Positions 15,249 to 36,698 of a DNA stretch of 38,504 bases are shown here, piece by piece. Both the position numbers and the translations under genes were made by a program. Source of the DNA: Myxococcota bacterium. Lineage in GTDB: Bacteria; Myxococcota; Myxococcia; Myxococcales; Myxococcaceae. The notes under the pieces were generated by a model that saw nothing but the letters and a program-made list of their open reading frames with translations, made no database searches and was not told the origin of the DNA. The first letter of the stretch is position 1. Each line of letters opens with the position of its first letter. The DNA lies in contig JBMORE010000011.1 of the NCBI GenBank assembly GCA_049322255.1, positions 1-38,504 of the forward strand, read 5' to 3'.

Positions 15249-15698
15249 ATGAGCACCCTCGCCTCGTGTACAGTCTGTCTGACCTTCGGCTGGTTGGTGC
15301 TGAGGGCGGGGAGCGCCAGCGCCTCCGAGACGTTCGTCCTCATCCGAAACTCGGAGAACCCCACTTCTACGCTGAGCCAAAAGCAGCTTCGGGCGATGGC
15401 GGTGGGGGAAGTGAAAGAATGGGACCAAGCGGGGCCACTTCAATGGGTGGTGCTGGAAGAGCCAGGCGCGGACATCGAGTGGCTGGCGAGGGAGGTTTTC
15501 GGAATTCCGGCGGCGGCGCTCCGACGCAAGATGAAGCTGGAAGTGTTCAGGGGCGAGCTTCGACCGCCGCGGACCGCCTCCAGCGAGGCCGAGGTGATTG
15601 ACAAGGTACGCCACAACCGGGGAGCGCTTGCTTTGGTGAGCTCCGAGACAAGCAAGGCCCTGCCCGAGGGAGTGGCAACGATTCAGCTCACGGACTGA
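15249..15698 (+). CDS. Small periplasmic PBP-like protein (phosphate-ABC substrate-binding-like, single domain)
   Basis: Signal peptide; LIRNSENPTSTLSQKQL...W and SEAEVIDKVRHNRGALALV motifs; 10 bp after the porin gene. Confidence 0.7.
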   Translation: MSTLASCTVCLTFGWLVLRAGSASASETFVLIRNSENPTSTLSQKQLRAMAVGEVKEWDQAGPLQWVVLEEPGADIEWLAREVFGIPAAALRRKMKLEVFRGELRPPRTASSEAEVIDKVRHNRGALALVSSETSKALPEGVATIQLTD

Positions 15699-17100
15699 CG
15701 GGAAGACCGATCGGCCAGCGGGGCAGAAAAATACGAAAGGCGGTTCCCCTCTTCTCGTCGCTCTCCACCTCGAGCCTGCCGTCGTGCGAATCGACCAGGC
15801 GCTTCACCGTGGCCAGTCCCAGCCCGTAGCCGCCGCCCAGGGTGGTACCTCGGTAGAATGGTTGAAAAAGCATGGGCATCAGCTCTGGAGGAATGCCGAC
15901 GCCCGTATCGGTGACGGTGAGGAGGACCTGGCGATCTGCGGCTTTGGCGCTCACCTCGACGCGGCGGGGCCCCTCTTCGCGCAAGTATTTCATCGCGTTG
16001 TCCAGGAGATTCCCCATCAGAGAGCGCAAGAGCACCGGGCTCATGGCCACCTCCAACTCCCGCGGAGCTTGCACCACGAGCTCGATGCCCCGCTCGCTCG
16101 CTCTGGGCTGGCACTCGGCCTCCAATTCCAAGAGGACCTCGCGAACGCTGACGTGCGCCCCACGTTCAGGTCGAGCCCCGCTTTGAGCGAAGGCGAGCAT
16201 CGTTGAAATCAGCGCGTCCAGACGTGACAGGCTTCGCTGCGCTCGGGCGAGCACTTCGTCGCTGCGTGCGCGCGCACCCGGAAGGAGCGCGAGCTCCAGG
16301 GCCGTGCGCAGAGCTTGCAGCGGGTTGCGAAGATCATGGGCCACTCGGGAGGCGAAAGCCTCGAGCTCGCTGGCGCGCGCTTCGGCTCCCACGCGGCGTT
16401 CTTGCACGTCCGAGTCGTAGCGTCGCCCGGTGCGTAAGAAGATCGCCAACAAGACGGCGGCACTGATACTGGCGACGACCGCCAGGGTGGTGTTGGCCCG
16501 GCTGGTGCGGCGAAGCGCCAAAAGCTCGTTCTTGGCCGCGTCGCGGGTCTCGCTGGTCTCCAGCTCCATGAGGCGTTGGAAAGCTCCATAGGTCCAAAAT
16601 TCCATTTCCCCTGCGTCGGCCAGGTGCTTGCCCGCAGACGGCCCGTCACCCCGGCGAGCCGCCTCGAGCGCGCGGTCGATGTGTTGGTGCAGCTCGTTCA
16701 TCGCCGAGCGGATGTCCCGCCAGTCGCGAGAGGTCACCAGCTCACGAGGATGACGTTCCTCGTAGGCTGCCGCGGCGGCGAGGCTGTCGTTGAACGCACG
16801 GGAGATAAGATGTTCGAGCTCGGGCCGGTCGCGCGGAGAATCCACATACGAGCGGGCCCAGGCGCGAATGCGGAACTGCTCGTTTCGGAGCGTGTTCAAG
16901 ACTTCGAGGTCGCGCGTGGTGCTCTGGAAGATTTCCATCGTGCCGTCGGAGAGCTGGACGATCCGATAGACCGCGACGATGTTGAGCCCGGCCAGGCCGA
17001 CGAGCAAAGCGACGAAGGAAGCGACCAACGCCACGATCGCCTGGCGCCGCCTCGTCAGCGATGACCCACCCCACAAGGGGGCGGCGGAGGGTTTGGGCAT
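15688..17100 (-). CDS. Membrane sensor histidine kinase (2 TM, four-helix-bundle-like periplasmic domain, HisKA, HATPase_c)
   Basis: H box VAHDLRNPL, N box NLLDNAMKY, G1 DTGVGI, F box LFQPF, G2 GYGLGLA; the likely start is ATG 17100. Confidence 0.92.
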   Translation of the reverse strand: MPKPSAAPLWGGSSLTRRRQAIVALVASFVALLVGLAGLNIVAVYRIVQLSDGTMEIFQSTTRDLEVLNTLRNEQFRIRAWARSYVDSPRDRPELEHLISRAFNDSLAAAAAYEERHPRELVTSRDWRDIRSAMNELHQHIDRALEAARRGDGPSAGKHLADAGEMEFWTYGAFQRLMELETSETRDAAKNELLALRRTSRANTTLAVVASISAAVLLAIFLRTGRRYDSDVQERRVGAEARASELEAFASRVAHDLRNPLQALRTALELALLPGARARSDEVLARAQRSLSRLDALISTMLAFAQSGARPERGAHVSVREVLLELEAECQPRASERGIELVVQAPRELEVAMSPVLLRSLMGNLLDNAMKYLREEGPRRVEVSAKAADRQVLLTVTDTGVGIPPELMPMLFQPFYRGTTLGGGYGLGLATVKRLVDSHDGRLEVESDEKRGTAFRIFLPRWPIGLPVSP

Positions 17101-17120
17101 GAGCCAAACATAGGCGGATC

Positions 17121-17597
17121 TCAGTGCGGAAACAGCGCCGGCCGCTCGGGACGGGCGATGCGCCGAATCGGCTTCCACTTCGAACCGTGCTGCGGTTTCC
17201 AGCGGCCGGACAGCCGCGCCGCCGGTTCGCCTCCCCGGCCGAGCAAATCCAGCAGATCGGTGAGGGTGACGATGCCGACCAGCTTGCCGCCTTCGACGAC
17301 GGGTAGACAGCCGATGGTCCTGGCGCGCAGCAGGTTCGCCGCCTGGCGAACGGTGGTGGTCGGGCTGGCCGTCACCGCCGCCGGGCTCATCCACTCCCCC
17401 ACCGTGGTGCCGCGCCGCTGGGAAGCGCCCTTGGGGCCTCCCAGGTCGCGCTGCGACAAGATGCCGACGATGCGCCGGTCTTCTTGCACCACCAGGTGTC
17501 TGATGCGCTGCACGCGCATCTTGTGAAAGGCCTGTTCGGCGTCGTCGTTCGGTGACGCGGTCTGTACGTCGGTGGTCATTATCTCGTGAAGCCGCAT
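17121..17597 (-). CDS. CBS-domain pair protein
   Basis: IMTTDV..., IRHLVV...VGILSQRDL, IGCLPVVEGGKLVGIVTLTDLL; AAGGAG RBS. Confidence 0.92.
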   Translation of the reverse strand: MRLHEIMTTDVQTASPNDDAEQAFHKMRVQRIRHLVVQEDRRIVGILSQRDLGGPKGASQRRGTTVGEWMSPAAVTASPTTTVRQAANLLRARTIGCLPVVEGGKLVGIVTLTDLLDLLGRGGEPAARLSGRWKPQHGSKWKPIRRIARPERPALFPH

Positions 17598-17608
17598 GTC
17601 CCACTCCT

Positions 17609-18280: not shown

Positions 18281-18409
18281 ATGCGCTTCCCTTCTTTCGT
18301 CAAAACTTCGGCACGCTGGGCCCCGCGAGCCACCGTCCTGATGCCAGGGACACGGCCTTCGCCCGCTCGGCCGTCGCTTTCAGCGGTGAATGCGCATGCT
18401 TCTTTCGCC

Positions 18410-19624
18410 ATGTCGCCGCAGCCCCTCGACCCTCCTCGTACCAGGCAGCTCATCCTCCGCTCGGTCGATGCACCCCCCACCGGGAAGGGGAGGGTGGAGG
18501 TGGCGGAACGAAAGGGCATCGGCCACCCCGACACCCTCTGCGACGGTGTCGCCGAAGCGGTTTCCGTCGCCTTGAGCCGCCACTACCTCGAGCGCTTCGG
18601 CCGGGTGTTGCACCACAACGTGGACAAGGTGCTCTTACGTGGCGGTCGCGCGCGCGCACATTTCGGCGGCGGCGAAGTCATTGAGCCCATCGACCTCTAC
18701 CTCGCCGGCCGCGTGACAAAGGAGCATCGCGGCGTGCGTGTGCCGGTGGACGAGCTCGCGGTGGAAGCGTGTCGCTCGTGGCTTGGCGCGCACCTTCGCA
18801 CGCTCGATGTCGAGCGGCACATCGTCGTTCATCCCCTCTTTCGCCCTGGGTCGGCCGAGCTCATCGACGTTTTTGAGCGACCGAGGACGGGGGCTCCCCT
18901 GGCCAACGACACTTCTTGCGGCGTGGGTTTCGCTCCCCTCACGTCCCTCGAAAGAGCCGTGCTGGCCGCCGAGGCCGCGCTGAACGACCCTCAGACCAAG
19001 AAACGGCACCCCGAGCTCGGTGAAGACGTCAAGGTCATGGGCATTCGGCGGGGAGCGTCCGTCGAGCTGACGGTGAGCTGCGCGTTCATCGCCGTGTTCG
19101 TGCAGAGCAGCGGCGACTACCTACGGAAGAAAGAGCTCGCCCGCGAAATGGTGGCCAGCGTCACCGGCGCCCAAGACGTCGTCGTCAACGCCGCGGACGA
19201 CCTCGAGCACGAGCGCGTCTACCTCACCGTCACCGGAACGTCGGCCGAATCAGGAGACGACGGCCAGACCGGCCGGGGCAACCGGGCGAACGGGCTCATC
19301 ACTCCCTACCGGCCGATGACGCTCGAGGCTGCCGCGGGGAAGAATCCCCTCAGCCACGTCGGCAAGCTCTACCAGCTGGCCGCCGGCCGAATCGCCAACG
19401 ACAGCGTGCAGCTGTCGGGAGTACGCGAAGCCTTTTGCGTGCTGGTGAGCCAGATTGGCCGACCCGTCGACCAACCCCAGCTCGTCGACTTGGCCTTACG
19501 TCTTCAACCGGGCGAGAGCATCGAGCAGCACTCGCCGCGCTTGGCGGCTCTCGTCCGCGACCATCTGGCGGAGCTGCCAACGCTCTGGCGAGCGTTGCTC
19601 GAAGGGAACCAGCGCGTCTACTGA
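18410..19624 (+). CDS. mat: Methionine adenosyltransferase (SAM synthetase), archaeal-type
   Basis: ERKGIGHPDTLCD, LHHNVDK, LANDTS.GVGFAP, GEDVKVMG, YLTVTGTSAESGDDGQTGRGNR.NGLITP.RPM, AGKNP.SHVGK are hallmark motifs of the archaeal MAT family rather than MetK. Confidence 0.92.
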   Translation: MSPQPLDPPRTRQLILRSVDAPPTGKGRVEVAERKGIGHPDTLCDGVAEAVSVALSRHYLERFGRVLHHNVDKVLLRGGRARAHFGGGEVIEPIDLYLAGRVTKEHRGVRVPVDELAVEACRSWLGAHLRTLDVERHIVVHPLFRPGSAELIDVFERPRTGAPLANDTSCGVGFAPLTSLERAVLAAEAALNDPQTKKRHPELGEDVKVMGIRRGASVELTVSCAFIAVFVQSSGDYLRKKELAREMVASVTGAQDVVVNAADDLEHERVYLTVTGTSAESGDDGQTGRGNRANGLITPYRPMTLEAAAGKNPLSHVGKLYQLAAGRIANDSVQLSGVREAFCVLVSQIGRPVDQPQLVDLALRLQPGESIEQHSPRLAALVRDHLAELPTLWRALLEGNQRVY

Positions 19625-19722: not shown

Positions 19723-21798
19723 ATGCGCGGGCTTTCGCTCATCGTGGCGCTCGTGACGCTGGGGCTGTTCGGCTGCCCCAAGACGACCGGGGTGCGCCCG
19801 GACGGCGAGGGCCCCAAGTACGAGGCGAAGAAAGACCCCAAGGCCGACGAGGCGCTGCAGGCCGCCATCCAGACGGCCCAGACGCAAGACTCCCAAGCGG
19901 CGGTGGAGACCTACCTGGCGGTGCGCAAGGCTTTCCCGGAGACCACCGCTGCCCAAGAGGCGCTCTACCGCGCGGGCGTCGTCGCCTTCGAGGCGGGCGA
20001 TTTCGTCACCGCGCGCAGGGCCTTCAACGAGCTGCTCTTCGACAACCCGCTCTTCGAACAAGCGACGGAGGCGAAGCTCAAGCTGGGCCTGGCGGCGCTC
20101 GAAGTGGGAGCGCACCGCGACGCCTACCAGACGCTCTCCTCCTTGGCCGACAAGCTTTCAGGCCCGCAGCGGCTCACCGCCCTCACCGCCGCCGCCCGCG
20201 CTGCCGAAGGGGCACAGCTGTTCGGTGACGCGCTGCGCATCGCCATTCAGTTGGGCGACGAGGCCACCTCCCCCGAGCAGCGCGCCGAGTCCTTGCGTCA
20301 GGTGGAAGCGCTGGTGGAGGGCAAGGTGGGCTTTCTCGACGTGGCCAAGGTGAAGCTCGACTTGCCCTCCACTCACCCGGCGTGGCCCATCCTCACCTTC
20401 AAGCTGGCACGCATCTACTACCACCTGCGCGACTGGGAGCGCCTGGAGGAGACGCTGCAGAGCTTTTTGCGCGAGACGCCCAGTCACCCCTTCGCGCCTC
20501 AGGCCCGCGAGCTGCTCGAGCGCGCCAGCCGGCGCTCCGAGGTGCGGCCCAAGGTGGTGGGGGTGGTGCTGCCGATGAGCGGCCGCTACAAGCCGCTGGG
20601 CGAGGCGGTGATGCGCGGCATCTCCCTGGGGTTTCGGGGCAGCGACCTCGAGGTGGTGGTGAAAGACTCGCAGGGCGACGTGAACTTGGCCGGCAAGCTG
20701 GTCGAGGAGCTCACCTTCGACCACGGTGCCATCGCCCTCATCGGCCCCTTGCTCACCGATGACGCCCGCCGCGCGGCCCTGGTGGCCGAAGAGCTGCAAG
20801 TCCCCATCCTCACCTTGAGCCGCGCCAAGGACATCACCGACATCGGCCCTTACGTGTTTCGCAACATGCTCACCAACGCTCAGCAGGCCAAGGCGCTGGC
20901 GGACTATGCGGTGGGCACCCTGGGGTACAAGAGCTTCGCGGTGCTCTACCCCAACATCCCCTTCGGGGTGGAGCTGGCCAACGGCTTTTGGGACGAGGTG
21001 GTGGCCCGCGGCGGCGAGGTGCGAGGGGCCGAGAGCTACGACCACGACCAGACCACCTACACCACCGAGGTGAAGAAGCTGGTCGGCCGCTACTACCTCG
21101 ACGACCGCGCTGACTACATGGAGAAGCAGCGGGAAATCATGGCTGGAGCAGGCGATGCGTTTCGCAAGCGCAAGGCGATTGAGAAGCTGCGCGGGCAGCT
21201 CGAGCCCGAGGTGGACTTCGAGGCGCTGCTCATTCCCGACGCGTGGGACAGGGTGGGGCTGGTGGCTCCCGCGCTGGCGGTGGAAGACATCATCACCAAC
21301 GCGTGCGACCCGCGCGACCTGGAGAAAATCAAGAAGACCACCGGAAAAACCCGCCTCAAGACGGTGACTTTGCTCGGCACCAACACCTGGACTTCGCCCA
21401 AGGGCCGCTCCGGGCTGCCCGAGCTGGTGGAGCGCGGGGGGAAGTTCGTCACCTGCTCGGTGTACGTCGACGGGTTCTTCGCCGACTCCGCGCGGCCGGC
21501 CACCAAGAAGTTCGTCTCCCTCTTCTCCGAGGCGTACAAGGACGTCACGCCCACCCTGCTCGACGCCATCGGCTACGACGCGGCGAGGATGATTCGCCAG
21601 GTGGCGGAGACGGCCGCACCTCGCACTCGCAACGACCTGCGCGAGCGACTGGCGGCCCTCAAAGACTTCGAGGGGGCCACGGGTACGACTTCCTTCGACG
21701 ACAGGCGAGAGGCGGTCAAACCGCTGTTCTTCATTTCGGTGGACAGCAAAGGCGTCAAAGAGGTGACGCCGGCTCCCAAACCGGCGAGCGGCTCGTGA
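19723..21798 (+). CDS. LpoA/LppC-like penicillin-binding-protein activator lipoprotein (TPR plus periplasmic binding fold)
   Basis: Lipobox LFGC; TPR helices; VGVVLPMSG, LIGPL, GYDAA, FEGATGTTSFD type-1 PBP motifs. Confidence 0.8.
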   Translation: MRGLSLIVALVTLGLFGCPKTTGVRPDGEGPKYEAKKDPKADEALQAAIQTAQTQDSQAAVETYLAVRKAFPETTAAQEALYRAGVVAFEAGDFVTARRAFNELLFDNPLFEQATEAKLKLGLAALEVGAHRDAYQTLSSLADKLSGPQRLTALTAAARAAEGAQLFGDALRIAIQLGDEATSPEQRAESLRQVEALVEGKVGFLDVAKVKLDLPSTHPAWPILTFKLARIYYHLRDWERLEETLQSFLRETPSHPFAPQARELLERASRRSEVRPKVVGVVLPMSGRYKPLGEAVMRGISLGFRGSDLEVVVKDSQGDVNLAGKLVEELTFDHGAIALIGPLLTDDARRAALVAEELQVPILTLSRAKDITDIGPYVFRNMLTNAQQAKALADYAVGTLGYKSFAVLYPNIPFGVELANGFWDEVVARGGEVRGAESYDHDQTTYTTEVKKLVGRYYLDDRADYMEKQREIMAGAGDAFRKRKAIEKLRGQLEPEVDFEALLIPDAWDRVGLVAPALAVEDIITNACDPRDLEKIKKTTGKTRLKTVTLLGTNTWTSPKGRSGLPELVERGGKFVTCSVYVDGFFADSARPATKKFVSLFSEAYKDVTPTLLDAIGYDAARMIRQVAETAAPRTRNDLRERLAALKDFEGATGTTSFDDRREAVKPLFFISVDSKGVKEVTPAPKPASGS

Positions 21799-21845
21799 CG
21801 AGGGGCTTGCGGAGGCCCAGGCTCGTTCCTACCTGCACCGGTGCC

Positions 21846-23465
21846 ATGCTCAACCGTTTTTCTGCCTACCTGCTCTTCGTCTTCGGCGCGCTGGCGGCGC
21901 TCTCCGGTTGCCGCACCACCCAAGCCCTCTCGCCCGGGCTGGTCGCCCAGCTCAAGGACACTCCCCAGGGCTACCTCTCGGGCGAGGTGACCGGCATTCG
22001 CCAGTACGCGCTGATGAACAACCGGGACTTCGTCTACTCGGTGGACATCAGCCCCGGCGGGGAAAAGGCGGCCTTCACCCACTTGGGCCCCAAGACTTTC
22101 CAGCTGGAGACGTGGCGGCTAGAGGGAGAGCCGCGGCAAATCTCCGACAAAGACTTGAACCACTACCAGTATGACGTGGAGTCGCTCGACTTCTCCCCCG
22201 ACGGCAAGACCATCGTCACCGCCAGCCGCGACGGCTCGGTGCGCTTCTTCGCGGCGGAGGACGGTGCGCCCTTGGGGGTCTACGCCACCGAAGAGCCGCT
22301 GGTCTCGGTGGCCTTCCACCCCAGCGGGCACTACGTGGCGGCGGGCAGCGCCAAGGGGCTCATCACCCTCCTCTCCTTCCCCCAGTTGCAGTTCGCCTTC
22401 GAGCAACGCGCCCACGAGGGCGAGGTGCGCAACTTGGTCTTCAGCGCCGAGGGGGTGCTCTACTCGGGTGGTTGGGACAAGAGCATCGTCTCCTTCGACT
22501 CTTCGGAGGAGAAGGTCTCCACCCAGGAGGCGCGTCTGCGCTTCGAGCGGCGCGGGGGCTTGAGCGTGGTGAAAGGCATGGTGAGCGACACGGTGCCGGT
22601 CGCCTTCGCCTTCGACGCCCGGGTGCCCTTCGTCGTCGTCACCAATGAGGTGGCCAAGAAGGCGGGCATCGACGTGCCTTTCCTCAAAGAGACGGTGCAG
22701 CTGGCCACGCCCATGGGCAGCACCCTGGCCCGGGTCGCCCGCGGCCAATCGCTCACCTTCAAGGCGCTCCGGGTGAAGAACGTCGATTTGGCGATTTGCG
22801 ACGCGTGCGTCCCCGGGGAGGCGCTCGGCGTCCTCGGGGAGGCCTTCACTCGGCGTTACGAGGTGGCGTTCGACGAGGTCGCCGGAGAGGCGTTGCTCGC
22901 GGCGAAGGAGAAGAGCGGCGAGGCCCCCACCCAAGCGGTGCTCACCCTGAAGACGAAGAAGCGCTCGAGCTTCGACTGGTACGTGAACGACTTCGCCCTC
23001 GACCGCACCGGGCGGTACTTGGGGGTGGCCTTCTCCGAACAGAAGGCAGAGCGCACCCGCGAGGTGTACGAGCGCGAGAAGAAGGGTGTGGCCGAGCCGT
23101 CGAGCGAGGGCAACGCCGGGGCCATCGTCGACGCACAGACCGGGCTCATCGTGCGCAAGTGGAGCGTGCACCAAGGGGTGGTGGCCACCGCGGCCATCAG
23201 CCCCGACGGCCAGACGTTGGTCACCGGCGGCTGGGACAAGCGCCTGTTGGTCTACACCCCGCTGGAGACCAAGCCCTTGGAGCAGGAGTTCGGCTGGTCG
23301 GTGCGCCGGGTGCGCTTCTCCGACGACGGGCGTTTTCTGGTGGTGGGGGCGTGGACGCCGCAGAACCCGCTGGGGAACCAGGAGAGCAACCCCTCCGCGG
23401 TGGTGTACGAGGTGGGCTACAAGATGCCCCAGGTGCAAGGCGGAGCGACCGCGCTCGCCCGTTGA
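21846..23465 (+). CDS. WD40 beta-propeller lipoprotein with an inserted retropepsin-like domain
   Basis: Lipobox LSGC; WD repeats (FSPDGKTIVTASRDGSV, LYSGGWDKSI, ISPDGQTLVTGGWDK); insert approx. 22527-22900. The real start is ATG 21846, not 21243. Confidence 0.8.
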   Translation: MLNRFSAYLLFVFGALAALSGCRTTQALSPGLVAQLKDTPQGYLSGEVTGIRQYALMNNRDFVYSVDISPGGEKAAFTHLGPKTFQLETWRLEGEPRQISDKDLNHYQYDVESLDFSPDGKTIVTASRDGSVRFFAAEDGAPLGVYATEEPLVSVAFHPSGHYVAAGSAKGLITLLSFPQLQFAFEQRAHEGEVRNLVFSAEGVLYSGGWDKSIVSFDSSEEKVSTQEARLRFERRGGLSVVKGMVSDTVPVAFAFDARVPFVVVTNEVAKKAGIDVPFLKETVQLATPMGSTLARVARGQSLTFKALRVKNVDLAICDACVPGEALGVLGEAFTRRYEVAFDEVAGEALLAAKEKSGEAPTQAVLTLKTKKRSSFDWYVNDFALDRTGRYLGVAFSEQKAERTREVYEREKKGVAEPSSEGNAGAIVDAQTGLIVRKWSVHQGVVATAAISPDGQTLVTGGWDKRLLVYTPLETKPLEQEFGWSVRRVRFSDDGRFLVVGAWTPQNPLGNQESNPSAVVYEVGYKMPQVQGGATALAR

Positions 23466-23522: not shown

Positions 23523-23909
23523 ATGCACGACTTGATTACCGAAGAGCTCACCATTCGCGCTGAGCTGGGCTCCCGGCTTTTGCGGTTGGTCATGACCGGC
23601 AAGAGCTCGAGCCGCGAGCCCGGCAAGCTCTTGACGCCCTTTTTTGCCGAGGCGCTCCAGCGGGCAGCCGCCGCGCGGGCGGCGATCGAGGTGCACTTCG
23701 AGGGGTTGACGCATTTCAACTCATCGACCATCGCGGCGGTGATTCAATTCATCAACGCCGCTCAGGAGCGTCACGTGGCGCTCGCGTTCCACTACGACCC
23801 GGCCCTCAAGTGGCAGGCCCTGTCGTTCGAGGCGCTGCAGCGCGCCATCAAGCCCTTCCAGAAAGGCACCGTTTCGCACGTACGCTTCGTCGAAACACCA
23901 CACGCATGA
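23523..23909 (+). CDS. SiaC/STAS-like partner-switching protein (paralog 2)
   Basis: GKSSSREPGKLLTP, VHFEGLTHFNSST, WQALSFEAL; GAGG RBS; clear paralog of 27206-27577. Confidence 0.65.
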   Translation: MHDLITEELTIRAELGSRLLRLVMTGKSSSREPGKLLTPFFAEALQRAAAARAAIEVHFEGLTHFNSSTIAAVIQFINAAQERHVALAFHYDPALKWQALSFEALQRAIKPFQKGTVSHVRFVETPHA

Positions 23910-24436
23910 ATCGCTGGCTCTTCAACATCGAGCTGCCGATTCTCGACAGCTGGCGCACCATCGAAGTTTTGAGGACGACCGTCCTCAACTGTCTTTCCAC
24001 CGTCTTCGAGAGCGGTGCCTACTGCGAGACGCTGGGGATGATTGTCGCCGAGCTTTTGGAGAACGCGCTCAAGTATGGCCGGCGAGAAGCGGCTGCCAGC
24101 GAGCGGTCGTTTCGCCTCAAGATCACCGGAACCGACGACTCGGTGGAAATCATCGTCTCCAACCCCATTGACCGAGCGACCACCGACCTACAGCGGTTGT
24201 TCGCGGTCGTGGGCGAGCTGGGGGCGAGCGACTCGGCCGAGCGGGTTTATCTCGAACGGCTCCAGAAGGTGGCCTCTGACCGCGCCGCGGTCGGGGGGCT
24301 GGGGCTGGCCCGCATCGCCTACGAATCGGGCAGCAAAGTGTTCGCCGAGGTCGACACCGACGACGTGCTGCAGGTCAAGGTCGTCACCCAGCCGGGAGCG
24401 AGGTTGCCGGTGACCGGCGCAGCAGCACCAAGGTGA
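23906..24436 (+). CDS. SiaB/anti-sigma-factor-like GHKL Ser/Thr kinase (paralog 2)
   Basis: N box ELLENALKYG, G box GGLGLARIAYE, no HisKA domain; ATGA overlap with the upstream gene. Confidence 0.75.
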   Translation: MNRWLFNIELPILDSWRTIEVLRTTVLNCLSTVFESGAYCETLGMIVAELLENALKYGRREAAASERSFRLKITGTDDSVEIIVSNPIDRATTDLQRLFAVVGELGASDSAERVYLERLQKVASDRAAVGGLGLARIAYESGSKVFAEVDTDDVLQVKVVTQPGARLPVTGAAAPR

Positions 24437-25796
24437 TGTCGTCGTCCTGCCGGGCTTGGAAGGAAACCACCTCTTTCAAAATCGCCGAAATCACCTGCTC
24501 GGGTGCGAGGGCGGCCGATTGGGTGAGCACCTGCGACAGGCGCTGTTCGCCGAACATCTCTCCCGCTGGGCTCTGCGCCTCGGTGACGCCGTCGGTGTAC
24601 AAGAGCGCGAGGTCACCCTCGGCGAGGGAGATTTCCTGGTCCTCGACGTGGCCACGGGTGTCGGAAATCATTCCCAGCCAGCAGCCTTGATTCGACACCA
24701 GCTCTGTTCGACCCGACGCCTTGCGGTAGACGAGGATGTCTTGGTGTTTGCCGGCGATGGTGATGCTTTTCTCGCCCAGGCGAATCACGTTGAGGGTCAT
24801 GTACCGGTGGGTGTTCAGCCGGGAGATGTTTTCGTGGATGGCGCCGTTGATGGCGCAAAACAGCTCGGACGGTCGCAGCCCCGGCCGCTGCGTCACCGTG
24901 GTGAGGATGCTGGTCTGGGTCATCATCATCACCAGACCGGACTCGACACCATGGCCCGAGACGTCGCCAATCGCCACCCACCGCTCGCCGGTCACGGTTT
25001 CGACGAAGTCGTAATAGTCACCGCCTACCTCGGCGGCGGGCTGCATCAGCGCACAAACCTCGAAGTTGCCCAGCCGCCGGTTCTTCGGCAAGAGCGCGGT
25101 CTGAATTCTCTTGGCGACCTCCATCTCGCCCCACAGCGCGTCGCGGGCGGCCTTGAGCTCTGCACGTGAGCGATCGAGGTGGCGGTTGGTGTCGAGGAGC
25201 TCGGCGCGCAGCCAGAACTCCTGCTCGATGAGGCGGTGCTTGGTGTGGTTGATCGCCACTGCGATGACCACGGTGGAGCCGAGGAAGTAGAGGTTGTTGA
25301 TCACCGTCTGCACATGAGGCGGCCCGCCGAAAAGAGCGTTGTAGACGACGTACATCCCCAAGACGAGCCCGCCGTTGGCTGCCGAGTGCACCGCGCGCCA
25401 CGGCAGCAAGAGGTTCACCGCGACGATGACCAGAATGAGCCCGGCGTAGTAGCTCGAGTCGAAGCCGCCGAGGTCGACCGTCATCTTGACGATCATTCCG
25501 CCCACCAGCGCGGTGAACAGGTACCCGTGCAGGTACGAACCGGGCGATGGCTGCGTTTTGCGGATCACCAAGTATTGCGCCAGCACCGCCACCGTCACCA
25601 CGAGCCGGTACCAGAAGAACTTGCTGAGCAGCTCCGCCGGCATGGTGAAGTAGTCGAGGACGAAGAAGAGCGGGATGAGGCAAAACCCCAAGGTGGTGAC
25701 GATGCGAGACCACGAGTGAATGAGGCCGTCGCGATAGAGGGCGAAGGCATCCCGCCCGGGCGAGGAGGAGGCGGCGGGAGAGAGGGGCGAGGTCAT
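24384..25796 (-). CDS. Membrane-bound PP2C/SpoIIE (RsbU/SiaA-like) phosphatase with a multi-TM sensor domain
   Basis: About six TM helices, coiled coil, then AKRIQTALLP, VGGDYYD, IGDVSGHG, LYTDGVTEA, DDITLV. Confidence 0.92.
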   Translation of the reverse strand: MTSPLSPAASSSPGRDAFALYRDGLIHSWSRIVTTLGFCLIPLFFVLDYFTMPAELLSKFFWYRLVVTVAVLAQYLVIRKTQPSPGSYLHGYLFTALVGGMIVKMTVDLGGFDSSYYAGLILVIVAVNLLLPWRAVHSAANGGLVLGMYVVYNALFGGPPHVQTVINNLYFLGSTVVIAVAINHTKHRLIEQEFWLRAELLDTNRHLDRSRAELKAARDALWGEMEVAKRIQTALLPKNRRLGNFEVCALMQPAAEVGGDYYDFVETVTGERWVAIGDVSGHGVESGLVMMMTQTSILTTVTQRPGLRPSELFCAINGAIHENISRLNTHRYMTLNVIRLGEKSITIAGKHQDILVYRKASGRTELVSNQGCWLGMISDTRGHVEDQEISLAEGDLALLYTDGVTEAQSPAGEMFGEQRLSQVLTQSAALAPEQVISAILKEVVSFQARQDDDITLVLLRRSPATSLPAG

Positions 25797-25815
25797 GGTC
25801 GTCGCGCAACGAGTT

Positions 25816-27216
25816 CTAACCGACCTTGTCCACTTGTAGAAACATCTGTGCGCCCGACTCGTCGAAAGAAACCGACGCCCGCTGGGCAGGCAACCCCGAG
25901 GTCAGCTCGAGGAGCTCGGCGTCGGTACGGTAGTAGAGCACCCAGTCCATCCAGTATTCCATGTAAGTGCGGGTGCGGTTGTTGGTGTGGTAGTTGCCGA
26001 TCACCAACGAGCCTCCCGGAACGAGCAGCTCGAACAGCTTGGTCAGAATCGCCCGCGCCACCGGTGGGGTGAGGTAGTCGAAAAGGCCCATCGAGTAGAT
26101 GAAGTGAAAGCGCCCGAACCGCTCGTCGAGCCGGGTGGTCTTGAGCATCGTCCGCACCGAGTCGTTGAAGTATTGGATTCGGATGGGCACGTCGCGGGCG
26201 GCTTCAATCTTTTCGACTCCGGCGCGGGCACAGGCGAGCGCCTCCGGGTCTTGGTCGAGCAGGGCGCAGTGGAAGCGCTCGAAGTCGGCGGGGTCGAGAT
26301 AGATGTCCTGCAGCTCCCACGCGGGTCCCGAGGCCACCGAAAAGATGCGCATCACTCCCGAAGGGAAGCGGGAGGCGACCGAGCGCAGCACTCGAGGTAT
26401 CAGCCTGCGCCGGTTGCGTACCGCCTGCGCCGCCTGAGTCTCGAGGGGGTGCTTGTGCAAAAGCTTGTTGAAGATGTAGCGGCCCTCGAACCGGTTCTCG
26501 TAAATCATCCGCATCATCTCGGCATCGCCGGCGTAGCCGCGGGGCTTGAGGTTGGTACGCTTGAGGAACTCCGAGCCGAGAATGAAGTGCCAGGCCTTGC
26601 GCCGCAGATAGAAGCCGTGCCGCTCATGCTCGGCCTTGTCGAACCCCTTCACCAGTTCGCCGAGCTGCTCCAGCTGGGCATCGAAGAATTGGAAGAGGTT
26701 TCGGCCCTCGGTGGTCAGCAGCGCCGCCTGCGCCGGCTCGGCCACGCACGCAGGCTCGTTGGCGAGGATGCGGTCCTGCTCGTCGAAGAACTTCTTGTAG
26801 ACGGCGAGGTCGTACAGGGAGCGCGAGACGAAGTCCTTGAGCTCGGGCCGAATGCCGTCTTTTTGGGCCAGCACCAGGGGAAGGTTCTGGAAGAAGCCCT
26901 TTAGATTCACCAGCTTGCCGTCCGCCAGCAGGGCGTGGCAGTCGAAGACGTCCTCGAGGAACAGCAGCCTGCCGGCGAACCCCTGTCGGGTGTACTCGAC
27001 GTGAAGCCGGCACGAGGAAAGCTCGACCGTCTGACGCGCGGCGGCGACCTTCAGGCGGGGAAAGATGGTGCGGTCGGGCGGCGGTGGGTTCTTGGCGAAG
27101 GAGACGTACAGCGACAGCCGCGAGGCGTAGCGAAGCGTGACGGGCAAAAGCTCGCCCTCGTGCTCAATCCACCCGTCGAGCGCGATGCCATCGAGGGTTT
27201 GAGGCTCAGCGGCCAA
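25816..27216 (-). CDS. Class I SAM-dependent methyltransferase, PhcB-like, with a degenerate PilZ-like N-terminal domain (TTG start, uncertain)
   Basis: KPRGYAGDAEMM, AQAVRNR, motif I FSVASGPAWE, LLDQDPEAL, FIYSMGLFDYL, LVPGGSLVIGNY, MEYWMDWVLYYR. Confidence 0.85.
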   Translation of the reverse strand: MAAEPQTLDGIALDGWIEHEGELLPVTLRYASRLSLYVSFAKNPPPPDRTIFPRLKVAAARQTVELSSCRLHVEYTRQGFAGRLLFLEDVFDCHALLADGKLVNLKGFFQNLPLVLAQKDGIRPELKDFVSRSLYDLAVYKKFFDEQDRILANEPACVAEPAQAALLTTEGRNLFQFFDAQLEQLGELVKGFDKAEHERHGFYLRRKAWHFILGSEFLKRTNLKPRGYAGDAEMMRMIYENRFEGRYIFNKLLHKHPLETQAAQAVRNRRRLIPRVLRSVASRFPSGVMRIFSVASGPAWELQDIYLDPADFERFHCALLDQDPEALACARAGVEKIEAARDVPIRIQYFNDSVRTMLKTTRLDERFGRFHFIYSMGLFDYLTPPVARAILTKLFELLVPGGSLVIGNYHTNNRTRTYMEYWMDWVLYYRTDAELLELTSGLPAQRASVSFDESGAQMFLQVDKVG

Positions 27217-27577
27217 GGAGGCGAATCCGCCCGTCGGGGGTTTCGAACGCCTTGAGCGCCGAAAAGCTCAAGGCCTGCCAGCGCAGGGCCTGGCTGAACT
27301 CGAGGAGCACCCGGCCCTGCCCCTTGGTCGCCTCGTCGAGCATCTTCACGATCGGCGCGAAGGTCGACGAGTTCATGTACTCGAGGCTGGTGAAGTCGAG
27401 CGTCAGACGCTTGCCGGCCGCCAGGCTGCGACCGAGCGCCTGGGTGAGCACGGGCATCAGCAAACGCCCCGGCTCGCGGTCGTTGCTCTTGCCTCTCCAC
27501 ACCAGTCGAAGCTCGTCGCCCGACTCCTGCTGCTCGATGGAGAGCTCCTTGTCGCCGAGGTTCTCTTGCGAGGACAT
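27206..27577 (-). CDS. SiaC/STAS-like partner-switching protein (paralog 1)
   Basis: WRGKSNDREPGRLLMP, LDFTSLEYMNSST, WQALSFSAL; overlaps the methyltransferase start by 11 bp. Confidence 0.7.
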   Translation of the reverse strand: MSSQENLGDKELSIEQQESGDELRLVWRGKSNDREPGRLLMPVLTQALGRSLAAGKRLTLDFTSLEYMNSSTFAPIVKMLDEATKGQGRVLLEFSQALRWQALSFSALKAFETPDGRIRLLGR

Positions 27578-27586
27578 ATGTTGCCT

Positions 27587-28069
27587 TCAGCGATGGTACA
27601 CGGCGGACACCGCCAGGATGTTGGACTCGTTGACGTAGAAATCAAGAACACACTGGCCCTCGTAGGCGATGCGCGTCAGCCCCAAGCCGCTGCGTGCGGG
27701 CGAGAAGGGCTGCGCGGACAGCTCCTTGAGCTTTTCCACGTACGCCTCGAACGGGTTCTGGTAACCGCGAATCCACTGGATGGTGGCGTCGAAGCCTTTC
27801 AAGCTGGAAGTGGCCGAGTCGATCGGGTTCTTCACCTCGATGGTGATGTCGGTCGCGCTCACCATCACCGAAAAATCAATCGCGTCGCGGGTGCCGTCGT
27901 AGCTTCCGTACTTCACCGCGTTCTCGAGCAGCTCCCGCGCGGCCATGCACAACGCATAAGAGACGTCCGGGTTGAGGCCGTTCGCTCCGAACAGGCGCAT
28001 GCAGTCATCCCAGGTTCCCTGGATCAGCTCCCAATCTGGCTTGAGGCGCAGCTCCAAGCGGCCGCTCAT
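27587..28069 (-). CDS. SiaB/anti-sigma-factor-like GHKL Ser/Thr kinase (paralog 1)
   Basis: ELLENAVKYG, IEVKNP, SGLGLTRIAYE; GAGGA RBS; 9 bp gap to the next gene. Confidence 0.78.
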   Translation of the reverse strand: MSGRLELRLKPDWELIQGTWDDCMRLFGANGLNPDVSYALCMAARELLENAVKYGSYDGTRDAIDFSVMVSATDITIEVKNPIDSATSSLKGFDATIQWIRGYQNPFEAYVEKLKELSAQPFSPARSGLGLTRIAYEGQCVLDFYVNESNILAVSAVYHR

Positions 28070-32000: not shown

Positions 32001-32420
32001 TCAGCCGGTCGCCTGGGTGGCCAACTTCCGGAGCTCACGCAAGGCTCCGAGCTCAGCCGTATACGCGCGGTGCAGCCGCTCGAGATCGAGCTGCGTGTAG
32101 ATATGAGCGAGCACGTTACGAAGTCCCGCCCAGCCTTCGAGCTCATGGGCCAGGGGGGCAGGTAACACTCCCGACCGCGCAAGGAGAACGAAAGCTTCAC
32201 GATAAGAGGAGGCAGGGCCGAGCTTCCTGTTGGCGAGCAGAACCTCGGCGATGTCGATGGCTGATTGGGCGGCGACGTACAGCGCGTTCGACACCATGCG
32301 GAAGGCGTGGCGATCTGTCATCAACCGTTCGAGCGGTACCTCGCGGGCGTATTGTTCGAGGTCGGCAAGCGCCTCATCCAGCGAGCGTAGGAGCACGGCC
32401 AGCTGCTCTCGCTGGGTCAC
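32001..32420 (-). CDS. hepT: HepT-like (DUF86/HEPN) RNase toxin
   Basis: Rx4HxY motif RNVLAHIY; AIDIA and PASSYREAF; GTGA overlap with the upstream NTase gene. Confidence 0.9.
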   Translation of the reverse strand: MTQREQLAVLLRSLDEALADLEQYAREVPLERLMTDRHAFRMVSNALYVAAQSAIDIAEVLLANRKLGPASSYREAFVLLARSGVLPAPLAHELEGWAGLRNVLAHIYTQLDLERLHRAYTAELGALRELRKLATQATG

Positions 32421-32857
32421 CGCGAGACTCCCAACACCCGGTCCACTTGGCGATGCCAGAAGGGGGCGAAGTCATGCCATTCACTCGCCCAACGCGCTTC
32501 GAGCACCACGCGCTCGTCCTCGCTTCTCACGTGGAGCCGGCGGCCCTCGGAGAGGACGGCAAAGCGAAAAGGAGGCGATGCTCCGTTGAGCGGCCTCACG
32601 TCGAGCGGGAGGACAGGATGCGTCTTGGCCTCGATCGCTGCCGCCACCCGGGCACAAGACGCGAACATCGCAGCGGAACTGGGCACGTCGGCGAAATAGA
32701 GGGCGAGGTCGATGTCACGGGCCGGTTCATCGCGAGCGACGGAGCCATGCAGATACGCCACGACCACCGAGGGCTCTCGGGCACACGCCTGCGCTGCCGC
32801 CCTACAGAGGGCGACCACTTCCTCGTTGGACAACCGTTGCCGCGCCACTTCCTGCAT
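32417..32857 (-). CDS. mntA: MntA-like minimal nucleotidyltransferase antitoxin
   Basis: VAYLHGSVARDEPARDIDLAL (GS...DxD), LDVRPLNGASP. Confidence 0.88.
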   Translation of the reverse strand: MQEVARQRLSNEEVVALCRAAAQACAREPSVVVAYLHGSVARDEPARDIDLALYFADVPSSAAMFASCARVAAAIEAKTHPVLPLDVRPLNGASPPFRFAVLSEGRRLHVRSEDERVVLEARWASEWHDFAPFWHRQVDRVLGVSR

Positions 32858-33347: not shown

Positions 33348-36053
33348 ATGGCCGATGACACCCTCGAAAAGCCGCCCGCTCCGCCGCCTCCTGGAGATGC
33401 GGGCAACCTGATTCCGGTCACCATCGAGGACGAGATGCGCAAGTCGTATCTCGACTACTCGATGAGCGTCATCATCGGGCGCGCCCTGCCCGACGTGCGC
33501 GACGGCCTAAAGCCGGTGCACCGGCGCATCCTCTACGCGATGTTCGACGAGGGGTTGCTCCACAACCGCAAGTACTCCAAGTGCGCCGGCGTGGTGGGCG
33601 AGGTCTTGAAGAAGTACCACCCCCACGGCGACGCCTCCGTCTACGACGCCCTGGTGCGGCTGGCCCAGCCGTGGAACCTGCGCTACCTGCTCGTCGATGG
33701 GCAGGGAAACTTCGGCTCGGTGGACGGTGACTCGGCGGCGGCCTACCGCTACACCGAGAGCCGGATGACGGCGCTCGCCGAGATGATGCTCGCCGACATC
33801 GACAAGGAAACCGTCGACTTCGGTCCCAACTTCGACGGCGCGACCACCGAGCCCTTGGTGCTCCCCACCCGCTTTCCCAATCTCCTGGTCAACGGTTCTT
33901 CGGGCATCGCGGTGGGTATGACCACCAACATCCCCCCGCACAACATGGCGGAGGTGCTTGATGCCACCGTGCACCTCATCGACAACCCCAAGGCGTCGAT
34001 CGCCGAACTGATGAAGCTGGTGCCCGGCCCCGACTTTCCCACCGCGGGGTTCATCAGCGGGCGGGAGGGGATTCAGAAGGCCTACGAAACCGGGCGCGGG
34101 CACATCGTGATGCGCGCGCGCACCGACATCGAGGTACAGAAGAAGACCGAGCGTGAGAGCATCATCGTCACCGAGATTCCCTACCAGGTGAACAAGGCGC
34201 GGCTCATCGAGCGCATCGCCGAGCTGGTGCGGGACAAGAAAATCGATGGCATCAGCGACGTTCGCGACGAGAGCGATCGTCACGGCATGCGGGTGGTCAT
34301 CGAGCTCAAGCGCGACGCCATCAGCGGGGTGGTGCTCAACAACCTCTTCGCCCTGACCCCGATGCAGTCGTCGTTCGGCATCGTCCTTCTGGCCATCGAC
34401 CAGGGCACCCCGCGCACCCTGAACTTGAAAGAGTTGCTCGAGCGCTTCGTGCTCCACCGCCGGGAGGTGGTCACCCGGCGCAGCCGCTTCGAGCTCAAGA
34501 AGGCGGAAGGCCGGCTGCACATCGTCGAGGGTCTGCTGGTCGCGCAGGACATCATCGACCACGTCATCACCATCATCCGCCGCTCGAAGGACGTGGACGA
34601 GGCGCGCTGGGGTCTGATGCACGTGCTCTCGCCCTCGCTCTACCAGCACCCGCGCTTCCAGGACCTGCCCAAGCTCGACGTGGCGGCGGCCAAGGCGCAG
34701 ATGCAGAAGCTCTCCGAGCGCGCCAAGGCCGACGAGCCCGCCTTCCCCGGGCTGGCACACGACTATGCCGCCGGCGGCTTCTCCGAGGAGCAGGCGAAGA
34801 ACATTCTCGACATGCGGCTGCAGCGCTTGACCGGCATGCAGCGCGACGAGCTCTACAAAGAGCTGCTCGACCTGGTACGCGACATCGTGCGGCTGCGCGA
34901 CATCCTCGCCAACGAGGCCAGCCTGCTCAACGTCATCAAGGCCGAGCTGGCCGAGGTGAAGGAGAAGTTCGGCGACGCGCGGCGCACCGAGCTCATCGGC
35001 GACGTGGGCGAAATCTCCACTGAAGACCTCATCGCCGAGGAGCCGATGGTGGTCACCCTCTCCCACGCCGGCTACGTCAAGCGCAGCCCGCTCACCGAGT
35101 ACCGGGCGCAAAAGCGTGGCGGCCGGGGCAAGACCGGCGCGGCGACCAAGGAAGACGATTTCGTCTCCGACATCTTCGTCGCCTCCACCCACGCTTACCT
35201 GATGCCCATCACCACCCGCGGCCGGCTCTATTGGCTCAAGGTGCACGAGATTCCGCAGGCCGGGCGCACCGCGCGGGGGAAAGCCATCGTCAACCTGGTG
35301 CAGTTCGGCCAGGACGAGAAGCTCGCCCAGGTGCTGGTGACCAAGGAGTTCTCCGAGAACCGCTACGTGTTCTTCGTCACCAAGCGCGGAGTGGTGAAGC
35401 GCACCGACCTGACCGCGTTCGCCAACGTGCGTTCCAGCGGCATCATCGCCTTGGGTATCGAGGACGGCGACAGCCTGGTGGCGGTGAAGATTACCGACGG
35501 CACCAAGGACGTGCTCCTCTCCACCGCTCAAGGCATGAGCATCCGCTTCCCGGAGGAAGAGGTGCGCTCGATGGGCCGCGCTGCCTATGGAGTCAAGGGC
35601 ATCACTCTCGAGGAGGGCGACTACGTGGTGGGCGCCGACCTGGTGGAGAAGGGCACCACCATTCTCACCGTCACCGAGAATGGTTACGGCAAGCGTACCG
35701 AGGAGGGCGAGTACCGGGTGCAGGGCCGCGGGGGGAAGGGAATCATCGACATCAAGACCACCGAGCGCAACGGCCGGGTGGTGGGCGTGGCGCAGGTGAA
35801 GGATGAGGACGAGGTGATGCTCGTCACCAACGGCGGCATGCTCATTCGTATGAAGGTGAAGGAGATTTCGGTCATCGGGCGCAACACCCAGGGGGTGCGG
35901 CTCATCTCCCTGGAGAGCGCCAGCGAGAAGGTGGCGGCGGTGTCGCGCTTGCCCGAGAGTGCCGCCGAGGCAGAGGAAGGCGGGGAGACCGGGAGTGGAG
36001 CGGGCCCTGGGATCGTTGCCGAAACAGAGGAACCCTCCGAGCCCAACGCTTAG
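33348..36053 (+). CDS. gyrA: DNA gyrase subunit A
   Basis: [33 protein letters not shown], catalytic AAYRYTE, GyrA box QKRGGRG, CTD pinwheel repeats, acidic tail. Confidence 0.99.
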
Positions 36054-36445
36054 ACCGGTTTCGCTCGCGCCACGTCCGTGTGTGAGAAGTCGTTTCCTTT
36101 GTAGAGGAGCGGTTCACCACGCACGACGGCCAGAGCGTAGGCAAAGCAATCGCCAAAGTTGAGGGCTGCGGGGTGACGCCCTTTCCCGAACCGACTGAAC
36201 GCTCCGCGCGCTGTTCGAGCGTGGAGGAGATCCACAGCCACGGGTTCAATCGCCGCTCGTTCTAGAAAGAGATCGAGATCTCGTGTGCCCTCGGCGCCAA
36301 AGCGCGTTTCGATCACGATCGACGACTCGACGAGATTCGCTACGGAGATGACGCAGGCGTCCGCATCCTCGATGAGCTCATTGAAGGCACGGCGTTCTGG
36401 CTCATCGAGCAAGATCGCTAGAAGAGCCGAGGTATCAATCACCAT
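36050..36445 (-). CDS. vapC: VapC PIN-domain toxin
   Basis: [15 protein letters not shown] in [25 protein letters not shown]; start ATG 36445. Confidence 0.95.
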
Positions 36446-36698
36446 GACCGGGGAGCCCGTGTTCGTCGTACCCGAGGATTTCGTCAGGGTTCCTGGCATC
36501 GCGCACAGGCAACTTGGCGCAGTGCGTGGCGATGGCGTCAAGCTCGTCTGCCAACCTTCGATGGGAACGTTCGCGACGCAGACGTGCCAACCGATCTCGC
36601 AACGCCCGCGTCACCGCCTCCGTCTTTGTCTCCCCGGTGAGACGAGCGAGTGCCTCCGCGAGCTTCTCAGCCTCGGGATTTCGAATGTTGAGAGCCAT
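36435..36698 (-). CDS. vapB: VapB antitoxin (Rv0623-like, RHH)
   Basis: MALNIRNPEAEKLA..LA..TGETKTEAV..AL, EILGYDEHGLP; overlaps vapC by 11 bp. Confidence 0.93.
   Translation of the reverse strand: MALNIRNPEAEKLAEALARLTGETKTEAVTRALRDRLARLRRERSHRRLADELDAIATHCAKLPVRDARNPDEILGYDEHGLPGHGD

Follow-up and report, generated by a model that had tools for sequence, protein, structure and literature searches.

A PhcB-like methyltransferase and a PhcS-type sensor phosphatase encoded with putative partner-switching proteins in Myxococcota

We describe a gene cassette from a member of the Myxococcaceae (GenBank assembly GCA_049322255.1, contig JBMORE010000011.1), contained in a stretch of 38,504 nucleotides that we refer to as the window. 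Its four core genes encode a small kinase-like protein, a STAS-like phosphoprotein, a methyltransferase related to PhcB and a membrane phosphatase with a PhcS-type sensor. The proteins keep their motifs, their genes are linked tightly and across many genomes, and the sensor tracks the enzyme while the output changes. The cassette probably forms a Phc-like autoinducer circuit that would be read by serine partner switching instead of by a histidine kinase. The contig that bears it (C11) is part of a 4.85-Mb genome that is 99.6% complete.

A four-gene cassette and its conservation

The core genes run on the minus strand, with intergenic gaps of exactly 9, -11 and 19 base pairs (bp). The operon begins with kinase 1 (positions 27587 to 28069), a small GHKL-fold Ser/Thr kinase-like protein of 160 amino acids (aa) related to slr1658, SiaB and SpoIIAB, followed by STAS-like phosphoprotein 1 (27206 to 27577; 123 aa), whose predicted phospho-acceptor is Ser70 (27368 to 27370). 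Next are the methyltransferase (25816 to 27216; 466 aa from a TTG start), a PhcB-like class I S-adenosylmethionine (SAM) methyltransferase and putative signal synthase, and the membrane sensor phosphatase (24384 to 25796; 470 aa), in which a PhcS-type six-helix sensor is joined by a coiled linker to a PP2C/SpoIIE domain. A second pair meets this run head-on from the plus strand: STAS-like phosphoprotein 2 (23523 to 23909; 128 aa, predicted phospho-acceptor Ser67 at 23721 to 23723) and the translationally coupled kinase 2 (23906 to 24436; 176 aa). The two are joined by an ATGA overlap, and the 3' ends of kinase 2 and the PP2C gene overlap by 53 bp. An earlier reading of this DNA from the sequence alone had described the same six open reading frames (ORFs), and our ORF coordinates and translations reproduced them in every position, strand and gap.

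A member of the methyltransferase family (E-value 1e-30) is present in 104 of 401 genomes of the phylum, a tally that includes the source genome (G000) and one other genome, G231. For comparison we used 49 Myxococcota loci, namely all nine matches below 1e-100 and 40 of the 49 matches below 1e-90; the source genome, G231, six genomes already represented and one short contig were left out. These loci come from 44 GTDB genomes in eight families, and because related genomes are not independent, locus counts overstate the number of events. The sensor lies directly behind the methyltransferase in 48 of the 49 loci, and a PP2C domain was seen in 45 of the 46 with room for it. Kinase 1 is upstream of the methyltransferase in all 47 loci with room, and a STAS gene is present in 47 of 49, standing between kinase and methyltransferase in 31. 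STAS proteins of this family are rare, occurring in 17 of 151 genomes from the order, and 21 of the 25 matches adjoin a cassette gene. Metagenomes gave at least 581 matches; in the best 80 of these, the sensor is next to the enzyme in 60 of the 61 with room (PP2C-fused in 51), and all four parts occur in 31 of the 33 loci with both flanks. The linkage seen by the sequence-only reading in a single genome is thus conserved in others, and it is far beyond chance. The metagenomic cassettes range in guanine-cytosine (GC) content from 0.34 to 0.74; since 59 of the best 80 fall below 56% GC, hosts other than the high-GC myxobacteria are suggested.

The head-on genes are paralogues of the core ones (30% identity between the kinases, E 2e-18; 39% between the STAS proteins, E 2e-21). 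Because a convergent STAS gene lies behind the PP2C gene in only 22 of the 49 loci, and extra kinases in only three, the second pair, although present as described before, is accessory, and we rejected it as part of the cassette core. An orphan third STAS protein of the cassette family, with its serine motif intact, is encoded elsewhere in the source genome (G000:C62:13465-13887, plus strand).

Enzyme, sensor and switch proteins

The motif KPRGYAGD lies at residue 224 of the methyltransferase, which is the sole copy of its family in the source genome. A homologue search gave 1188 matches among 7999 scored candidates, and many of the best 120 carry the Joint Genome Institute (JGI) name ‘extracellular factor 3-hydroxypalmitic acid methyl ester biosynthesis protein’; the closest named homologue among these listed matches (76% identity) is labelled Myxococcaceae. 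We took the JGI name, a pipeline label, as a lead only, and the enzyme was therefore compared directly with named PhcB. It shares 29% identity with Cupriavidus PhcB (463 aa) over 270 aa in pairwise alignment (E 9e-28), and a 17-row family profile spans PhcB at positions 76-480 (E 1e-75 to 1e-79). There is exactly one methyltransferase match per genome in five named Cupriavidus/Ralstonia genomes. The 90% clusters of the Cupriavidus necator and C. alkaliphilus matches contain entries named ‘SAM-dependent methyltransferase PhcB’, and that of the gene after the phcB match contains ‘sensor histidine kinase PhcS’. Residue 22 of Cupriavidus PhcB is Arg, in agreement with the R22C site given in the available text of PMC6989110. 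In trees built as quick or FastTree versions, the PP2C-linked enzymes and the PhcB group form separate clades, each with a support of 100 in the Shimodaira-Hasegawa-like approximate likelihood ratio test (SH-aLRT). The assignment to PhcB made by the sequence-only reading therefore holds as homology and fails as orthology: the window enzyme is a distant homologue in a clade of its own.

The structural model of the enzyme (predicted local distance difference test, pLDDT, 89) consists of a beta-barrel of PilZ fold, a long helical bundle and a Rossmann domain. Its best solved structural neighbour is the uncharacterised Bordetella protein 3ocj (Z 20.4; root-mean-square deviation, rmsd, 3.0; 250 residues aligned), and those that follow are mostly small-molecule methyltransferases. 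Searching the sequences of solved structures with the enzyme yielded no informative match. In a plasmid collection all relatives were partial, with less than 80% of the query covered, and no match came from the C. metallidurans megaplasmid.

The N-terminal barrel (residues about 12-86; 26959 to 27183, minus strand), which had gone unremarked before, was modelled with a pLDDT of 94. Its top 12 structural matches are moderate (Z 5.9-8.4, rmsd 2.8-3.9, 77-95 residues aligned) and comprise 11 PilZ-containing receptors of cyclic di-guanosine monophosphate (c-di-GMP) or cellulose synthases, together with the c-di-GMP-bound PA0012. Pfam gave the domain no name, and Foldseek found no match to the barrel model at E 0.001. 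We regard this PilZ-fold domain as degenerate. The c-di-GMP motif D/NxS/TxxG is found in none of the 49 cassette enzymes and is absent from PhcB too, and it is kept in nine of nine and 19 of 20 relatives in two more distant sets. The paired PilZ motifs, taken here as RxxxR and D/NxSxxG, are likewise carried by none of the 49. An alignment of the N-terminus of Cupriavidus PhcB (L156:1426-2814) to the PilZ-like domain is weak (13%), and this region contains the R22C site reported before; the texts available to us say nothing of such a domain.

The C-terminal part of the phosphatase is a SpoIIE/PP2C domain (Pfam E 1e-36) with intact metal-site motifs (GGDYYD at 258, GDVSGHG at 277, YTDG at 400 and DDIT at 452), and hydropathy places six hydrophobic segments in the N-terminal part. 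Pfam gave no name to this membrane domain (residues about 25-185; 25242 to 25724, minus strand). An Atlas structure matching the sensor domain (template modelling score 0.93) is named MASE8, and the Pfam MASE8 model (PF20968) matched none of 21 members at E 0.1. In pairwise alignment the domain resembles PhcS only weakly (E 2e-5). A profile of it that draws on 21 loci from the order and phylum of the window, with no PhcS among them, matches once per genome in five Cupriavidus/Ralstonia genomes (E 1.5e-20 to 1.7e-22); in all five the match lies in the PhcS gene, which follows the PhcB match at a distance of 65-123 bp and has the same orientation. The window sensor and PhcS share L47-D48, R64, M105, S114, Y116, G119 and F171. 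Conserved residues within the membrane are D48, R64, S114, Y116-Y117 and N168, with D48 and R64 present in all 206 sensor domains collected, a set that contains duplicates and was picked in part by the YYAG motif. By profile, then, the membrane domain is homologous to the PhcS sensor, which makes the earlier idea of a sensor phosphatase stronger than when it was proposed.

For the kinases and STAS proteins, the best-scoring named families are the slr1658 and slr1659 superfamilies of Synechocystis (NCBIfam NF047703 and NF047705), in 38 of 38 kinases and 31 of 31 STAS proteins scanned. In the window, kinase 1 (slr1658, E 2e-11), kinase 2 (slr1658, E 3e-10; SiaB family, E 2e-4) and STAS 1 (slr1659, E 6e-6) all match below the cut-offs, and the window proteins score 44, 40, 27 and 26 bits with the slr1658/slr1659 models against a cut-off of 100. 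The SiaB-family model matches six of the 38 kinases and the SiaC model one of the 31 STAS proteins (E 0.005); window scores reach 61 against a cut-off of 700 for SiaA and 21 against 85 for SiaB. The best Protein Data Bank match of the kinase family profile is 6kko_A (E 5e-4, profile positions 16-147), which we take to be SiaB and which was co-crystallised with DUF1987/SiaC. Kinase 1 has an N-box (ELLEN at 46) and a GLGL box (at 128) and no DxGxG box; 6kko_A likewise has none at the aligned position. The STAS profile matches the anti-sigma antagonist TM1442 (E 3e-4) and DUF1987/SiaC (E 0.09). Ser70 of STAS 1, invariant in 31 of 31 aligned rows, aligns opposite Thr68, the phospho-acceptor of SiaC (PMC7647112, in its available text), and Ser67 of STAS 2 is invariant in 28 of 28. 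Of the ‘Sia-type’ cascade in the sequence-only reading, the likeness remains, in the folds, in the kinase- and STAS-like nature of the small proteins and in the position of the phospho-acceptor. Family membership does not: scores with the SiaA, SiaB and SiaC models stay far under the cut-offs, and those with the slr1658/slr1659 models are higher.

Outputs of the sensor and neighbouring genes

Distant relatives of the enzyme keep the sensor and change what it is fused to. In the first nine examined (31-37% identity) the sensor lies behind the enzyme in every case, fused to a hybrid histidine kinase (eight) or a cyclase (one). Of 20 further distant loci, 16 have it (15 kinases and one cut short), and it is absent beside three full-length enzymes and one short one. 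Short family members, used as a control, have a sensor nearby in none of 14 cases. L327, L330 and L331 encode full-length PilZ-methyltransferases with the c-di-GMP motif intact, with no sensor within the 9-kb loci. Four genomes hold both a PP2C-type and a kinase-type pair, and the pairs sort by system. The sensor and enzyme trees share four groups, with a Mantel r of 0.91 overall and 0.67 within the PP2C group.

An extra sensor copy with another output domain is also present in 33 of the 59 low-GC cassettes, and in none of the 21 high-GC ones. A classification by motif, for which one member of each class was checked in Pfam, divides the 33 fusions into 20 kinases, nine cyclases, two HD-GYP proteins, one CheA-like protein and one chemoreceptor. 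In L281 and L282 the extra fused copy is the only sensor present, and in the low-GC loci L217-L224 and L231 a sensor-cyclase gene is inserted between the methyltransferase and the sensor-PP2C gene. One further locus (L334:2720-8993, from G108:C21) encodes a kinase-type PilZ-methyltransferase, then a sensor-HisKA-HATPase-receiver-PP2C protein and STAS-like, kinase-like and receiver-Ser/Thr kinase proteins; this arrangement could be either an intermediate or a second, independent origin. In the source genome itself, an orphan histidine kinase (G000:C164:3428-4699, minus strand) bears this six-helix sensor (E 1e-34) and lacks an adjoining methyltransferase; it is a candidate second reader of the signal.

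One GGDEF family is co-directional with the cassette in five of the 49 loci, from two families (L039, L162, L175, L187 and L194). Its members share an unnamed N-terminal domain of about 150 aa, and the L194 copy has a degenerate active site. Of 184 neighbouring proteins, reduced to 127 by de-duplication, 62 were scanned (E 1e-25). These included single genes for an acyl-CoA ligase, an acyl-CoA dehydrogenase and a cyclopropane synthase, and no member of the ketosynthase family.

In the window, the cassette has a GC content of 0.63-0.64, compared with 0.65-0.70 across most of the window, and is flanked by genes for an NAD-binding oxidoreductase and a WD40 protein. The earlier statement that the cluster holds no SiaD, sigma factor or response regulator agrees with our scan, in which 22 other window ORFs included no gene for a response regulator, a sigma factor or a GGDEF protein; the signalling gene closest to the cassette encodes an unrelated histidine kinase (15688 to 17604). 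No sigma-70 promoter was found at the locus, and terminator-like sites are no commoner than chance. An archaeal-type S-adenosylmethionine synthetase (18281 to 19624, plus strand; PF01941, E 8e-145) is encoded 4 kb from the cassette, and this gene is not common to the other 49 cassette loci. In one window protein, WD40 repeats are split by a retroviral-type aspartyl protease domain (21783 to 23465, plus strand), and a nucleotidyltransferase/HepT-like toxin-antitoxin pair and a PIN-domain gene flank gyrA (32001 to 32857 and 36050 to 36541, both minus strand).

Proposed circuit and its implications

Comparison with known systems places the cassette on the Phc side for its input and on the Sia/Rsb side for its output, as a member of neither. 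As in the phcBSRQ cluster of Ralstonia and Cupriavidus, a methyltransferase of the same length and the same three-domain layout is followed directly by a homologous six-helix sensor. The Phc signal is methyl 3-hydroxymyristate or methyl 3-hydroxypalmitate, which acts between cells. In Phc, however, the sensor sits on HisKA/HATPase domains, whereas here it is fused to PP2C; the cassette has no PhcR or PhcQ receiver gene, its synthase is preceded by a kinase/STAS pair, and its enzyme belongs to a separate clade. We therefore rejected filing it under Phc. The cassette occurs in Myxococcota and on low-GC metagenomic contigs, whereas the available text of a Pseudomonadota survey confines the phc cluster to Betaproteobacteria (PMC10653808). 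With SiaABCD of Pseudomonas aeruginosa it shares a membrane PP2C, a small GHKL kinase and a STAS-like phosphoprotein whose Ser70 aligns with Thr68 of SiaC, as well as a co-directional GGDEF gene in five of 49 relatives. It differs in its PhcS-like input domain, in the synthase within the operon and in the absence of the diguanylate cyclase SiaD from the window locus; with the Sia models also below their cut-offs, membership of Sia was rejected too. The RsbU-RsbV-RsbW and SpoIIE-SpoIIAA-SpoIIAB switches have the same three protein folds, but the cassette has no sigma factor, its kinases have no DxGxG box and its input would be a putative self-made ligand. Slr1658 is known, in the available text of PMC7555055, only by a mutant phenotype, in recovery from iron limitation, and that text mentions no signal synthase. 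As in the sequence-only reading, which knew of no description of this hybrid architecture, we found none in the literature searched, with most subscription journals and supplements lying outside the search.

We propose the following circuit. Using SAM, the methyltransferase would convert a hydrophobic carboxylic acid (probably a fatty acid or hydroxy fatty acid) into a membrane-permeant methyl ester. The ester may bind within the six-helix membrane domain, which is related to the PhcS sensor and co-inherited with the enzyme, and binding would alter PP2C activity, in either direction, through the coiled linker. The phosphorylation state of Ser70 in the STAS protein would depend jointly on the phosphatase and a constitutive SiaB/SpoIIAB-like kinase; by analogy with Sia and Rsb, the kinase would retain the STAS protein or let it pass to a partner. 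The partner would usually be encoded elsewhere and is most likely a c-di-GMP enzyme; because one cyclase family accompanies the cassette in some genomes, a diguanylate cyclase is the best candidate, as in Sia. The second STAS/kinase pair may add a parallel branch.

Several observations weigh against this proposal. The enzyme shares only 29% identity with PhcB, and for its catalytic domain the median score is 103.5 bits with the PhcB clade and 97 with the short, sensor-less members. The branch joining all long, sensor-linked enzymes has a support of only 79, deep nodes are weak, and a 65-row tree places the short enzymes beside the PP2C clade. The sensor is not adjacent in one cassette (L186) or in four full-length relatives (L023, L327, L330 and L331), and the agreement between sensor and enzyme trees is partly expected of adjacent genes. 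The DxGxG box is missing in 50 of 52 kinases, whose catalysis is therefore putative. No fixed output gene emerged when 611 ORFs from 50 loci were clustered, the only cluster being a mixed one of kinases, cyclases and regulators; the linked GGDEF family was found neither in the source genome nor in the metagenomic loci. Nor was a recurring dedicated fatty-acid or polyketide gene seen among the 62 neighbours scanned.

The lack of a fixed output gene would also fit a cassette in which the kinase/STAS/PP2C trio tunes the signal circuit itself and the response passes through other sensor copies fused to kinases or cyclases. For example, the STAS protein might act on the degenerate PilZ domain of the synthase in place of c-di-GMP. 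Its gene is immediately upstream of the synthase in 31 of 49 loci, the c-di-GMP motifs have been lost from all cassette enzymes and kept in nearly all the distant ones, and further sensors with conventional outputs exist, both in low-GC cassettes and as the orphan kinase of the source genome. PhcB, however, is also without the c-di-GMP motifs and yet has no STAS partner; in 18 loci the STAS gene does not adjoin the synthase, and the extra STAS copies and the cyclase linked in five loci suggest downstream targets. We consider such a feedback role unlikely.

That the signal passes between cells at all can be questioned in another way. The conserved polar residues of the sensor sit inside membrane helices, and the ligand could therefore derive from the cell's own membrane; given also the deep divergence of the enzyme from PhcB, the enzyme might methylate a retained membrane lipid or fatty-acid intermediate, and the sensor would then report the supply of SAM or fatty acids. 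This seems improbable to us: in the available texts of PMC6989110 and PMC10653808, the sole characterised pair of such an enzyme and sensor makes and reads a secreted signal, and sensors without an enzyme of their own, such as the orphan on C164, are expected of listeners. More remote still is a CheR-like role in adaptation, with the enzyme modifying a protein such as the sensor or the STAS protein. PilZ domains regulate CheR in Pseudomonas, the enzyme always stands beside a membrane receptor, and it gives a weak Pfam CheR match (E 0.022). PhcB gives the same weak match (E 0.043), though, the closest structures are 3ocj and mostly small-molecule methyltransferases, and the pairing persists while the cytoplasmic part of the receptor varies freely, all of which makes protein methylation very improbable.

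More tentatively, and less probably than not, the cassette may represent a widespread and so far undescribed form of quorum sensing, with a Phc-type lipid methyl ester as the signal, a membrane Ser/Thr phosphatase as its reader and partner switching as the relay. On that reading, the PhcS-type six-helix domain would act as a modular receptor for autoinducers, with at least six outputs (histidine kinase, PP2C, nucleotide cyclase, HD-GYP, chemoreceptor and CheA-like kinase), often two per operon, and the PP2C form may stem from a sensor-kinase-receiver-PP2C intermediate resembling L334. Uncultured myxobacteria would then have a diffusible autoinducer, and the Ralstonia system would be one branch of a much older family. 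The quorum-sensing receptors known to us are histidine kinases, ligand-binding transcription factors and cyclic-nucleotide enzymes; a phosphatase that acts as receptor and feeds into a serine partner switch would be new wiring. In the literature searched, work on the Phc system is confined to Burkholderiales. With another, unrelated output joined to the same pair of synthase and sensor, the ligand of the PhcS domain and the variation in its specificity become open to direct testing, with D48, R64, Y116 and N168 as candidate ligand contacts. The cassette is compact and self-contained, and its reconstruction in a laboratory strain is feasible. Uncharacterised slr1658/slr1659-like proteins would gain a function as well.

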